A stretch of 9,003 nucleotides of DNA from a virus (Duplodnaviria > Heunggongvirae > Uroviricota > Caudoviricetes). Shown here piece after piece: positions 5,502-7,254 of this stretch. Position 1 is the first letter of the stretch, and each line of letters opens with the position of its first letter. The notes beneath the pieces were generated by a model. It did no database searches and was not told where the DNA came from. It saw nothing but the letters and a program-made list of their open reading frames with translations. The stretch is taken from IMG/VR virus record IMGVR_UViG_2667527608_000007; one strand, written 5' to 3'. Made by a program: the position numbers and the translations under genes.

Positions 5502-5897
5502 ATGGCGAAACCTTTTACACACGAACAGCGTGAAGAACTGAAGGCCCGAATTATCGGGCTGGTACGCAAAAATGAACGCATGACGATATCACAACTGGAG
5601 AGAGCGACGGGAGCAGGCTGGCATTCAGTCAGACGTTGCCTTGTGGATGTACTGGCTTGTGGCGATTTATACATGCCCGGTAAATACGGTGTTTTTACAT
5701 CAGAACAGGTGTATCGCGTATGGCGTAAGGCAGCGGAGAAAGCAACCGACCAGACATTGATTCGAAAGTTACCAGACGGAGAAATACGCCGCTACGACAG
5801 ACAACAGAACATAATCTGTGGCGAGTGCCGGAAGAGTGAAGTTATGCTGCGTGTACTGGCGTTCTATCAGGGCAATTTTCAGGAGGCGGTACTGTGA
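5502..5897 (+). CDS. Hypothetical protein (131 aa), possible HTH near the N-terminus
   Basis: Intact ORF tightly packed with its neighbours (stop overlaps the next start, GTGA); segment MTISQLERATGAGWHSVRRCL looks HTH-like. No family recognised with confidence. Confidence 0.5.
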   Translation: MAKPFTHEQREELKARIIGLVRKNERMTISQLERATGAGWHSVRRCLVDVLACGDLYMPGKYGVFTSEQVYRVWRKAAEKATDQTLIRKLPDGEIRRYDRQQNIICGECRKSEVMLRVLAFYQGNFQEAVL

Positions 5898-6538
5898 GTG
5901 AATTAGCTATCAGGCTTCAATTGTCGCTGGCATTCGCATCAAAGGAGAATGAGATGATCACTTTTACAAAAGAGCAGTTAATCAGTCATGTTAGTGAAAA
6001 TGTAAAGGCGATGAAATTTGCAGTAAAACAGACAGTATTCAAAAATTCTCTCGAGGCAATTGAGTTGGATTTAGCACTGGCCCTTGTTGCTCAGGCTTCG
6101 CTGGAAGCAGAGCCCGTGCTTTATATGAATCGATTTACCGGAAAGACATTCTCACTGGAAGAGCAACCCGGTGCTGATAAGGAACCGGAAATATACGTGC
6201 CGCTATATGCTGCCCCGCCAGACAGCGCCGCCATGCTTCAGGCTGGAAACTTTCGGGAAAATAAGGGTTCGTCAACCAATAATTTTCGGGAAATCTCGGA
6301 AACGTCAACCAACTATCCGGTAACTCCGGATGGTTGGATAAGCTGTAGTGAGCGAATGCCGGATGATGGTCAGCACGTAATTATTTTATGTGATGGCGCA
6401 TTCGTTCTTTATGCGCAATATCGAGACGGTGAGTTTTTTGATGTAGTCCGTAATGGTGATGAATTTTTCGAAACACAGAGCCGCAATGTAACCGACTGGA
6501 TGCCGCTACCAGAACCGCCGCAGGAGGTGCGCCAATGA
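5894..6538 (+). CDS. Hypothetical prophage protein with C-terminal DUF551-like domain (214 aa from GTG 5894; alternative ATG at 5954)
   Basis: C-terminal segment DGWISCSERMPDDG...TDWMPLPEPP is typical of DUF551 phage proteins. AGGAGG at 5881-5886 precedes GTG 5894; AAGGAG precedes ATG 5954. Confidence 0.6.
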   Translation: MSELAIRLQLSLAFASKENEMITFTKEQLISHVSENVKAMKFAVKQTVFKNSLEAIELDLALALVAQASLEAEPVLYMNRFTGKTFSLEEQPGADKEPEIYVPLYAAPPDSAAMLQAGNFRENKGSSTNNFREISETSTNYPVTPDGWISCSERMPDDGQHVIILCDGAFVLYAQYRDGEFFDVVRNGDEFFETQSRNVTDWMPLPEPPQEVRQ

Positions 6539-6618
6539 TCTGGCCTGAAGCCTTTGCAATTACAGGCGTTGCTATAGCTATTGATTTTTTAGTATATGTT
6601 ATTTGTCGGTGGGGGTAA
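6535..6618 (+). CDS. Micro-ORF, 27 aa predicted single-TM peptide (MIWPEAFAITGVAIAIDFLVYVICRWG)
   Basis: Perfect AGGAGG at 6522-6527, 7 nt before the ATG, which overlaps the upstream stop (ATGA). Hydrophobic core of about 18 residues. Below the ORF-track cut-off. Confidence 0.4.
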   Translation: MIWPEAFAITGVAIAIDFLVYVICRWG

Positions 6619-6653
6619 AAACGTTCGCCGGGATTCACACCAAAGGAGGGAAT

Positions 6654-6758
6654 ATGTCGGATGATATTTCACTGGCAATGGAAGGTGCTCTGGCTGTTAT
6701 TGCTGTTGTGGGCGTTTACTGCCTGGTTGTGTTTTTGATGGATCGACTAGGGAACTGA
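6654..6758 (+). CDS. Micro-ORF, 34 aa predicted single-TM peptide (MSDDISLAMEGALAVIAVVGVYCLVVFLMDRLGN)
   Basis: AAAGGAGGG at 6642-6650 immediately upstream of the ATG; about 22 consecutive hydrophobic residues; below the ORF-track cut-off. Confidence 0.45.
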   Translation: MSDDISLAMEGALAVIAVVGVYCLVVFLMDRLGN

Positions 6759-6766
6759 ATTCATTA

Positions 6767-6788
6767 CGATATGGGAATTCCCATATCG
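6767..6788. promoter_or_regulatory. 22-bp perfect palindrome CGATATGGGAATTCCCATATCG, 13 bp upstream of the predicted hok promoter -35
   Basis: Exact dyad symmetry read from the sequence; no T-tract follows, so it is not a classical intrinsic terminator. Confidence 0.5.
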
Positions 6789-6800
6789 GGTAAAAACGGT

Positions 6801-6828
6801 TTGCGGTAAAGCGAGAGTTAAGTAGAAT
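6801..6828 (+). promoter_or_regulatory. Putative promoter of the mok/hok mRNA (-35 TTGCGG 6801-6806, 16-bp spacer, -10 TAGAAT 6823-6828)
   Basis: It sits just upstream of the 5' element (6833-6846) that is complementary to the mRNA 3' end, giving a transcript of about 420 nt ending at the terminator at 7254. Confidence 0.45.
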
Positions 6829-6889
6829 TGCTGCGGGTGCTTGAGGCTGTCTGCCTCGGGCATGCCACCGTAAGGCAGACAGAGAAAAG

Positions 6890-6955
6890 CCCCAGTTAAC
6901 ATTACGCGTCCTGCAAGACGCCTAACATTAATCTGAGGCCAATTTCATGCTAGAC
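6890..6955 (-). ncRNA. Putative Sok-like antisense RNA overlapping the mok translation-initiation region (predicted from a promoter only)
   Basis: Minus-strand -35 TTGCCT (6990..6985), 17-bp spacer, -10 TAACCT (6967..6962) would start a transcript antisense to the mok ribosome-binding site (GAGG 6934-6937) and start codon (6947). The 3' end is not defined. Confidence 0.25.
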
Positions 6956-7159
6956 ATATGTAGGTTAGCCTCTTACGCGCCGAAAGGCAAGGAGAAGCAG
7001 GCTATGAAGCAGCAAAAGGCGATGTTAATCGCCCTGATCGTCATCTGTATCACCGTCATAGTGACGGCACTGGTAACGAGGAAAGACCTCTGCGAGGTAC
7101 GAATCCGAACCGGCCAGACGGAGGTCGCTGTCTTCACAGCTTACGAACCTGAGGAGTAA
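6947..7159 (+). CDS. mok: Mok-like reading frame (70 aa), in frame with and containing hok
   Basis: MLDICRLASYAPKGKEKQAMKQQ... closely parallels my recollection of E. coli MokC (MLNTCRVPLTDRKVKEKRAMKQH...), where mok is an in-frame N-terminal extension of hok. GAGG ribosome-binding site 9 nt upstream. Confidence 0.6.
   Translation: MLDICRLASYAPKGKEKQAMKQQKAMLIALIVICITVIVTALVTRKDLCEVRIRTGQTEVAVFTAYEPEE
7004..7159 (+). CDS. hok: Hok/Gef-family type I toxin (51 aa)
   Basis: MKQQKAMLIALIVICITVIVTALVTRKDLCEVRIRTGQTEVAVFTAYEPEE is near-identical to my recollection of HokC/Gef and HokD/RelF. AAGGAG ribosome-binding site at 6988-6993; single TM helix; conserved Cys and the RTGQTEVAVF motif. Confidence 0.9.
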   Translation: MKQQKAMLIALIVICITVIVTALVTRKDLCEVRIRTGQTEVAVFTAYEPEE

Positions 7160-7228
7160 GAGACCCGGCGAGGGAGAAATCCCTCGCCACCTCTGATGAA
7201 TCAGGCATCCTCAACGCACCCGCACTTA

Positions 7229-7254
7229 ACCCGCTTCGGCGGGTTTTGTTTTTT
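7229..7254 (+). terminator. Rho-independent terminator of the hok transcript (stem ACCCGC/GCGGGT with TTCG loop, then T-run)
   Basis: ACCCGCTTCGGCGGGTTTTGTTTTTT read directly. An additional perfect 9-bp hairpin with GAAA loop (GGCGAGGGA-GAAA-TCCCTCGCC) lies at 7167-7188, just after the hok stop. Confidence 0.7.

Follow-up and report, generated by a model that had tools for sequence, protein, structure and literature searches.

Are two very short open reading frames (ORFs) located immediately upstream of a hok toxin locus genuine genes, and if so, do they belong to the toxin system that follows them? This question is raised by a 9,003-nucleotide stretch of Caudoviricetes DNA (IMG/VR record IMGVR_UViG_2667527608_000007; the whole stretch is hereafter called the window) that derives from a Rac-like lambdoid prophage of Escherichia coli. 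There, ORF1 (27 codons) and ORF2 (34 codons) follow a DUF551 gene (Table 1), and because the hok locus comes directly after ORF2, three small membrane peptides are encoded inside 625 bp, the membrane location of the ORF1 and ORF2 products being predicted. The original prediction, made from the sequence alone, had placed the three peptides within 650 bp, treated them as one cluster, and raised the possibility that the new members are toxins, holin-like factors, superinfection-exclusion factors, or modulators of host membrane proteins. The coordinates, the start and stop codons, and the AGGAGG-type Shine-Dalgarno (SD) sequences that it gave for both ORFs are confirmed, and conservation, hydrophobicity, and published translation of ORF2 make it likely that each is a real gene whose product is a small membrane peptide with a single helix. 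On balance, we favor the interpretation that ORF1 and ORF2 are two independent and genuine small protein genes, that their products are single-pass inner-membrane peptides, as predicted, and that neither is a Hok-type toxin.

Across both strands of the whole window, GGAGG precedes an ATG or GTG by 4-14 nt in just six ORFs of 20 codons or more, a set that is confined to the plus strand and includes ORF1 and ORF2; shuffled sequence yields 1.7 ± 1.4. This count is beyond chance, and conservation is the stronger argument for both genes. Comparison with related prophages, which the original prediction had named as a way to check the idea, reveals a maintained reading frame, conserved synteny, and a pattern of synonymous substitution for both ORFs. 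Searches with profile models, also proposed there, produced no family assignment: neither ORF1, ORF2, nor other members of their families match Pfam, NCBIfam, PHROGs, or PADLOC models, apart from sub-threshold hydrophobic noise.

When ORF1 is aligned with other prophages, the same 27-codon frame is retained at ~75% nucleotide identity, with the pattern MxWPEAF..VG..MAV.LVVYSICRWG. The family consensus is MxWPEAF..G..A....VYSICRWG, and the window copy has WPEAF, Y-x-I-C-R-W-G, 27 codons, and the ATGA junction described below. Our scans of IMG/VR for these motifs covered at least 120 loci each, and the instance counts are lower bounds. A scan anchored on the N-terminal motif recovered at least 127 instances, which represent 43 distinct peptides, almost all of them 27 amino acids long. 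A scan anchored on the C-terminal motif recovered at least 130 instances, 113 of which have an ATG at −57 and 27 codons; five other copies start with GTG, three carry an in-frame deletion of two codons, most of the rest keep the ORF1 start and depart from the pattern only by a further ATG upstream in the same frame or by an extended C-terminus, and two matches are unrelated. No nonsense or frameshift allele is present among the ~128 related matches listed for the C-terminal scan. Each scan finds the half of the peptide that it left unconstrained to be conserved. When pooled, they comprise at least 180 copies of exactly 27 codons and 51 distinct peptides, in which W3, P4, E5, A6, G11, A15, Y21, I23, C24, and W26 are near-invariant. 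Among 53 distinct alleles, the entropies at codon positions 1, 2, and 3 are 0.377, 0.268, and 0.745, and the ratio of nonsynonymous to synonymous differences (pN/pS) is 0.37 in frame versus 0.87 and 1.47 in the shifted frames, which points to purifying selection on the ORF1 frame; these selection statistics, and those for ORF2 given below, are pairwise and ignore phylogeny.

The genomic contexts of ORF1 are equally informative. Its ATG overlaps the TGA stop codon of the DUF551 gene (6536-6538) as ATGA, and this overlap with the stop of the preceding gene is kept in every ORF1 homologue examined. The preceding gene is a mosaic Ea-type gene whose C-terminus is of three kinds (DUF551 ‘…PLPEPPQEV[RN]Q’, ‘…RNGLISVEDILR’, and ‘…NDLKNIEQEVNR’), and a GGAGG-type element is conserved 5′ of ORF1 in all contexts. 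The original prediction that the arrangement of ORF1 suits translational coupling to the DUF551 gene is therefore upheld across all three upstream gene ends: the layout for termination-reinitiation, namely a stop/start overlap together with an SD inside the upstream gene, is present and conserved, and actual coupling is probable. What follows ORF1 varies, and can be hok at +46 nt, the insertion that carries ORF2, a terminator and other DNA, or a region without hok.

By tblastn, ORF1 is found in 93 phage records, including 933W, VT2-Sakai, VT1-Sakai, BP-4795, and Min27. The virulent Vequintavirinae phage Av-05 carries a copy (MTWPEAFTTVGVVMAVAFAVYSVCRWG) after a 220-amino-acid gene that is annotated as hypothetical, and the corresponding tblastn rows of related phages are labelled EaA protein. 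The P1-like phage-plasmid SJ46 has a 24-amino-acid form. From these distributions, we conclude that ORF1 is in all likelihood a real gene tied to Ea/DUF551 gene arrays and not to hok. Because ORF1 is found in a virulent phage and inside early operons, its product most likely acts during lytic growth. A more specific rule, that ORF1 ends its operon, was rejected when a simple terminator rule identified canonical terminators after just 13 of 122 copies. There is no coding sequence (CDS) for ORF1 in RefSeq, a few GenBank records list it as a ‘hypothetical protein’, and the records of 933W, VT1-Sakai, and vB_EcoS-666R9 contain no separate CDS for it.

ORF2 has a different history. RefSeq already includes a protein, WP_001278450.1, with the exact coordinates, length, and sequence of ORF2, situated between DUF551 and hokD. 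We find that it belongs to a family of 29-34 codons with an SD-preceded start and the core …YCL..[VF]LMD[RH]L[GS][DN], all of which the window copy shares. Two lineages can be distinguished, with ~62% identity in the shared core: a long lineage, to which the window ORF2 belongs, and a short lineage (MLVLKCALAIAAVMAIYCLAVVLMDRLSD) that has the C-terminal core in common with it. A tblastn search of 50,697 phage records with ORF2 returned four weak matches, in Tritos, Evi, mEp460_ev081, and HannyBb. In the three of these loci that were inspected (Tritos, mEp460_ev081, and HannyBb), a short relative with a GTG start after AGGAGG (MLVLKCALAI[AT]AVMAIYCLA[VI]VLMDRLSD) is located just upstream of hok, ORF1 is absent from the vicinity, and the peptide gene is preceded by an opposite-strand gene in two of these loci. 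The short form also follows ORF1 in four IMG/VR loci.

To survey the family, we used a motif for the shared C-terminal core, with no requirement for hok. IMG/VR yielded at least 125 instances (52 long and 73 short), and in all 123 untruncated instances listed the hok 5′ element occurs at +80/81 nt (long) or +47 nt (short). The same scan of one genome per species, for 185,579 species, produced five matches, all short and all with hok at +47: one in E. albertii, one in E. ruysiae, and three on short contigs of metagenome-assembled genomes that are labelled as other genera and are taken to be mis-binned. When 1.84 billion representative proteins were searched exhaustively by HMMER with ORF2 as the query, seven matches emerged, each at least 79% identical, and a word-indexed protein search gave only E. 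coli ‘hypothetical protein’ entries. The ORF2 family, newly recognized here, is thus restricted to Escherichia as far as these searches reach, and consists of two lineages.

Within each lineage, pN/pS is lower in frame than in the shifted frames. In the long lineage, codon position 3 accounts for seven of 10 variable sites, with a pN/pS of 0.18 versus >1 in the shifted frames, and in the short lineage the values are 0.44 versus 0.66 and 0.72, with eleven codons in these alleles fixed by the search pattern. The ribosome-binding sites are conserved as well, as AAGGAGGG in the long lineage and as AGGAGG, GGGAGG, or AGGAG 5-6 nt before the GTG in the short lineage. Short-lineage loci also conserve a promoter-like TTGAAT-17-CATATT element along with the SD while sequence further upstream varies. 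Long-lineage ORF2 is always preceded by ORF1 of the ‘AIT’ sub-lineage or by a damaged copy of it. Separately, we observed a long-lineage variant (MSDDLSLAMEGALAVISVVGVYCLVVFLMDRMGN, WP_077779993.1) with hok on the E. coli IncY plasmid pHX138.261ft_1 (positions 1983-2087 of the extracted locus L340), where only the 3′ end of an ORF1-type frame is seen within the 100 nt upstream of ORF2 and an IS5 transposase gene lies ~460 nt upstream.

Published data indicate that ORF2 is translated. In E. coli O157:H7 Sakai, the novel ORF XECs145 (1550761-1550922) encodes MCYLSVGVKTFAGIHTKGGN followed by ORF2, such that its last 34 residues are identical to the window peptide (Hücker et al., 2017, PLoS One 12:e0184119, PMC5597208). 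In LB medium, XECs145 has a transcriptome value of 79.1 and a translatome value of 346.1 reads per kilobase per million mapped reads (RPKM), a ribosome coverage value of 4.35, and a coverage of 0.99. In the brain heart infusion (BHI) control, these values are 121.3 RPKM, 150.1 RPKM, 1.14, and 0.84, and under BHI stress translation is essentially off (PMC5597208). The authors predicted a one-helix inner-membrane protein, found no SD for the start of their 54-codon ORF, and gave no function, family, or link to hok (PMC5597208). The XECs145 start codon, which the published peptide implies to be ATG in Sakai, is ATA in the window (6594-6596), and hence the start of the 54-codon model is missing in the window; the 34-codon, SD-supported model of RefSeq is, judged on sequence, the better fit. 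Sakai XECs145 begins MCYL…, and the base change implied by this published peptide would turn Tyr21 of ORF1 into Cys.

The description of both ORFs as unreported thus needs to be divided. It does not stand for ORF2, which is known as WP_001278450.1 and as the translated XECs145 from ribosome profiling (Ribo-seq); what is new for ORF2 is its family and its linkage to hok. It largely stands for ORF1, given its absence from RefSeq and from reference records of Shiga toxin (Stx) phages. Neither ORF is mentioned in the papers that deal with Hok diversity, hokW-sokW, or the enterobacterial micro-proteome, and literature text searches for the peptide strings returned no match.

How tightly, then, is ORF2 bound to the toxin locus? 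The hok 5′ element TGCGGGTGC (6832-6840) is complementary to 7216-7224, as in the classical pairing of hok mRNA 5′ and 3′ ends, and this pairing together with the Rfam leader match places the hok transcript start ~74 nt after the ORF2 stop. The putative hok promoter was read from the sequence and a hok-locus alignment, and is not listed by our consensus scan. Across the family, 47-81 nt separate the ORF2 stop from the hok 5′ element (81 nt in the identical locus of E. coli O103:H2). Relative to loci that have only ORF1, the window contains ~175 extra bases that hold ORF2. This insertion is bracketed by a direct repeat, GGGTAAAAACG (6613 and 6788), which suggests that the segment entered or left by recombination between short repeats, and it ends in a 22-nt palindrome, CGATATGGGAATTCCCATATCG. 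The palindrome would form an RNA hairpin without a U-tract, and paa-carrying prophages in which other sequence takes the place of ORF2 (loci L234 and L235) still have it next to hok. In loci that lack ORF2, the ORF1 stop runs straight into …TAAAAACGGTTTGCGG, which includes the hok −35 element. The idea of a single ORF1-ORF2-hok cluster is not sustained by these arrangements, in that ORF1 accompanies Ea/DUF551 arrays without hok while ORF2 is tied to the hok promoter.

The alternative that survives best is that ORF2 is a functional third component of prophage hokD-type hok/sok systems, co-transcribed as a first cistron and damping or potentiating Hok or otherwise tuning the cassette. ORF2 is strictly adjacent to the hok promoter in every instance found, over two divergent lineages and at least four different upstream junctions; no terminator was identified by a terminator scan between ORF2 and the hok terminator, and short-lineage copies conserve a promoter-like element of their own. 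However, this linkage could reflect merely a small recombination target, since the spacer is just 47-81 nt. Moreover, in a sample of 76 usable loci anchored on the hok leader, only 26 (about a third) have an intact ORF2-family ORF: 11 carry ORF1 and long ORF2, five carry long ORF2 next to an ORF1 that is variant or damaged, such that the motif missed its N-terminus, and 10 carry short ORF2. Three more have a short ORF2 with a Met-to-Thr change, 16 have ORF1 only, ~8 retain only a 3′ stub of the ORF2 family (for example, paa-carrying prophages with the junction in the last two codons), and the remainder have neither ORF. All of these classes, with or without ORF2, share the same dominant Hok peptide, and co-variation of Hok with the presence or lineage of ORF2 was accordingly rejected.

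A further argument against the third-component proposal comes from virulence plasmids. The short form, at 79% identity, is present in 135 pINV-type plasmids of Shigella and enteroinvasive E. coli, the only place where an ORF2-family copy was seen without intact hok. In pCP301 of Shigella flexneri (AF386526.1, 219920-220006; positions 1601-1690 of locus L338), the homologue MLVLKGTLAIAAVMTIYCLIVVLMERFSD has an intact ORF, ATG start, AGGAGG SD, and promoter-like TTGAGT-17-CATATT element. It is followed by ~75 nt of decayed hok promoter and leader and then by the icsP upstream region, with icsP itself ~290 nt downstream. The pCP301 and phage alleles differ at 18 positions, distributed 8/1/9 over codon positions 1, 2, and 3. 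It appears that the ORF2 family is always found with hok DNA, that hok does not need ORF2, and that ORF2 may survive without hok. Three points count against a direct functional partnership of ORF2 with Hok, namely that ORF2 is often lost, that Hok does not co-vary with it, and the pINV case; we consider the third-component proposal unlikely.

A second alternative is that one or both peptides are membrane-damaging toxins, of a type I-like or holin-like kind, that are normally silent. Their size, hydrophobicity, and single predicted helix (seen in our hydrophobicity analysis and in the published prediction for XECs145) resemble those of type I toxins, and a real type I toxin adjoins ORF2. Like ORF1 and ORF2, the Hok/Gef proteins (PF01848, with mok and sok) are small, prophage-borne, and have a single transmembrane helix. 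However, neither peptide matches PF01848 at E≤1 or any other family model, neither shows sequence similarity to Hok/Gef, and neither has a counterpart of the periplasmic C-terminal domain of Hok. Comparison by eye likewise reveals no convincing similarity between ORF1 and ORF2 or between ORF2 and Hok. The mok-like overlapping frame, sok-type antisense RNA, and long-range 5′/3′ pairing are features of the hok locus only, with none around ORF1 or ORF2. The Ibs, Ldr, ShoB, TisB, DinQ, and ZorO toxins fall in the same length class (19-35 amino acids) and are similarly hydrophobic, but no motif is shared, and no cognate small RNA (sRNA), tandem duplication, or structured leader was found for ORF1 or ORF2; both ORFs instead have strong and unobstructed SDs.

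A weak promoter-like site antisense to the ORF2 start (6678 to 6651, nine of 12 positions matched) might be taken to favor a toxin. However, the region has three promoter-like sites versus 1.2 ± 1.3 in shuffles, which is within chance, no counterpart exists at the start of the short-lineage sequences inspected, and Rfam identifies no RNA family over ORF1 or ORF2. An antisense RNA for ORF2 is therefore unsupported. Translation of type I toxins is kept low during growth, whereas the published LB values rank ORF2 with the better-translated of the novel ORFs in a lysogen that was growing and had not been induced. The toxin suggestion of the original prediction thus fares poorly for ORF2, which is unlikely to be a potent toxin because it is translated under these conditions. 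With regard to holins, the matching O103:H2 prophage has its class II holin gene and lysis cassette ~7 kb further downstream than ORF2, beyond the window, and the C-termini RWG (ORF1) and DRLGN (ORF2) are not the charged tails of a holin, nor do the ORFs lie in a lysis cassette. We therefore regard the toxin alternative as improbable.

A third alternative is that the ORFs are regulatory upstream ORFs, whose translation itself covers the operon 3′ end or sets read-through at the hok/sok promoters. In the commonest arrangement the ORF1 stop is ~10 nt before the hok −35, the short-lineage ORF2 stop occupies the same position (46-47 nt before the hok 5′ element), and ORF1 is joined to its upstream gene by the ATGA overlap. 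Against this, it is amino acids that are conserved (WPEAF and YSICRWG in ORF1; YCL..VLMDRL in ORF2), with pN/pS <1, and ORF1 is equally conserved where hok is not downstream, including in a virulent phage, making this alternative very improbable. Finally, although the ORFs are very short, hydrophobic ORFs arise easily, some ORF1 copies have nonsense mutations, and ORF2 is often deleted, the proposal that they are chance ORFs or decaying remnants is highly improbable, given that length and frame are kept over hundreds of copies with nucleotide identity down to ~75%, that most changes fall on the third position of codons, that SDs are conserved, and that translation of ORF2 is published.

Several observations weigh against our preferred interpretation of two independent small protein genes. 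First, the instances are not independent, but come from a handful of lineages, and pN/pS between the two ORF2 lineages discriminates poorly (0.46 versus 0.53 and 1.24). Second, ORF1 can be lost, because TGG is changed to TAG at codon 3 in two loci, one in phage phiSTEC1589-Stx1c (L002, 2501-2730) and one in E. coli 2009C-3133 (L005). (In the latter, hok is also absent.) Third, codon 17 of the window ORF1 (6583-6585) encodes Asp, which is unique among the 51 family peptides (A in 47, T in two, V in one, and D in one). Because Asp17 lies in the hydrophobic stretch, the free energy of membrane insertion on the Hessa scale, summed over residues 7-24, is +1.1 kcal/mol for the window allele versus ~0 for the common allele, and the window copy may be impaired. 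The Asp17 allele is nevertheless common in genomes of Shiga toxin-producing E. coli (STEC). By the same analysis, the predicted ORF1 helix is borderline and that of ORF2 is clear, with ~ −3.0 kcal/mol over residues 13-29. Fourth, no sigma-70-like promoter on the plus strand upstream of the window ORF2 passed the consensus scan; a TTGCTA/TAGTAT candidate inside ORF1 was dropped for its spacer of just 15 nt. Fifth, O157:H7 records have 4-6 places that match a 6500-6790 query, and so the Ribo-seq reads assigned to ORF2 could come from several near-identical prophage copies in Sakai. Sixth, the smallest ORFs in the novel-gene table of that study are 93 bp (PMC5597208), and ORF1, at 84 bp with its stop codon, is shorter.

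Taking ORF1 and ORF2 as independent genes, the following scheme would account for the observations. ORF1 would be the terminal micro-gene of mosaic Ea/DUF551-type early arrays in enterobacterial phages. Ribosomes finishing the preceding gene would restart at the ATGA, aided by the embedded SD, such that the peptide would be made whenever the early operon is transcribed, i.e. in lytic growth, and it would act as a small membrane-embedded modulator unrelated to hok. ORF2 would use its own strong SD and would be translated in uninduced lysogens, as the identical peptide appears to be in O157:H7 Sakai. It could be viewed as an accessory (‘moron’) membrane peptide, expressed in the lysogen, whose gene moves together with the hok cassette and whose transcript probably ends where that of hok does. 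This accessory reading, with possible co-transcription with hok, draws on the lack of a terminator of its own and on the promoter-like element of its relatives. ORF2 would be non-toxic at native levels and optional for hok/sok.

Known small membrane proteins offer guidance on what such peptides might do. MgrB, AcrZ, MgtS, PmrR, and KdpF have fewer than 50 amino acids and one hydrophobic helix, and bind larger membrane proteins. They are encoded by host chromosomal genes and have known partners, whereas ORF1 and ORF2 are phage-borne, and we know of no homology between the two groups. T4 Imm and HK97 gp15 are small phage membrane proteins for superinfection exclusion or host takeover; they are larger than the ORF1 and ORF2 products and are not known to be related to them in sequence, and the likeness consists of phage origin and predicted membrane location and, for ORF2, also expression in lysogens. 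By analogy, the most likely mode of action for ORF1 and ORF2 would be binding of larger membrane proteins.

The features of the interval are collected in Table 1. Many STEC chromosomes, that of O103:H2 strain 12009 among them, match the region 6400-6900 at 100% identity, and the ORF1-ORF2 segment is present in 673 of 5426 complete E. coli genomes (~12%). The RefSeq gene order in strain 12009 is racR, a helix-turn-helix gene, a YdaT-family gene, replication genes, DUF1627, DUF977, DUF551, the 34-amino-acid ‘hypothetical protein’, hokD, another hypothetical protein, DUF968, rusA, and an antiterminator gene. The DUF551 gene is given with its RefSeq start at 5954; its longest ORF begins with GTG at 5894.

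Table 1. Features of the DUF551-hok interval (window positions)
Feature	Position	Strand	Evidence or remark
DUF551 (EaA-type) gene	5954-6538	+	RefSeq WP_000627694.1; Pfam PF04448, E=6.8e-21
ORF1 SD, AGGAGG	6522-6527	+	7 nt 5′ of ATG, inside the end of the DUF551 gene
ORF1, 27 amino acids, MIWPEAFAITGVAIAIDFLVYVICRWG	6535-6618	+	ATG 6535, TAA 6616-6618; hydrophobic
Left direct repeat, GGGTAAAAACG	6613-6623	+	Flanks the ORF2-bearing insertion
ORF2 SD, AAGGAGGG	6643-6650	+	Ends 3 nt before the ORF2 start codon
ORF2, 34 amino acids, MSDDISLAMEGALAVIAVVGVYCLVVFLMDRLGN	6654-6758	+	ATG 6654, TGA 6756-6758; RefSeq CDS WP_001278450.1
Perfect 22-nt palindrome, CGATATGGGAATTCCCATATCG	6767-6788		Between ORF2 stop and hok −35; central EcoRI site
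Right direct repeat, GGGTAAAAACG	6788-6798	+	Sequence
Putative hok promoter	6801-6828	+	−35 TTGCGG 6801-6806, −10 TAGAAT 6823-6828
hok mRNA leader / sok region	6835-7009	+	Rfam RF01794 sok/hok-leader model, 114 bits
mok (from 6947) and hokD-type hok (7004-7159)	6947-7159	+	Pfam PF01848, E=2.3e-23, 81.9 bits; RefSeq hokD
Intrinsic terminator hairpin, hok transcript end	7228-7245	+	First terminator-like site 3′ of ORF2 stop

Two observations concern the hok locus itself. On the minus strand, a 51-codon ORF (6747-6902) spans, in antisense, the palindrome together with the promoter and leader of hok, and a related antisense ORF is XECs166, which the Sakai Ribo-seq study reported at a hok locus of the paa type (PMC5597208). 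A signal of the XECs166 type may reflect transcription of the Sok region rather than a gene. In addition, 7168-7249 has a sub-threshold match to the Rfam isrK family, a Gifsy-1 Hfq-binding sRNA (27.7 bits versus a gathering score of 50; E=9e-4), which covers the part of the hok transcript where its 3′ end and terminator lie; the genes for the hypothetical protein and DUF968 are downstream of this match.

Even if neither peptide has a phenotype, the distinction between them is useful, because annotation is corrected, including the start of XECs145, and two unrelated neighboring micro-genes are separated. A more ambitious view, which we consider quite unlikely, combines three-part hok/sok systems in which ORF2 modulates Hok or the membrane with an early ORF1 micro-protein that has a specific host membrane target. 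As a predicted small membrane peptide that is encoded at the hok promoter and translated in lysogens, ORF2 is a candidate modifier of the hok system, and if it does modulate Hok, then prophage hokD-type hok/sok loci would be three-part systems. ORF1 is a 27-codon gene whose conservation extends from Stx phages to a virulent myovirus, yet reference annotations still omit it, a case that bears both on Stx-phage biology and on the annotation of small proteins generally.

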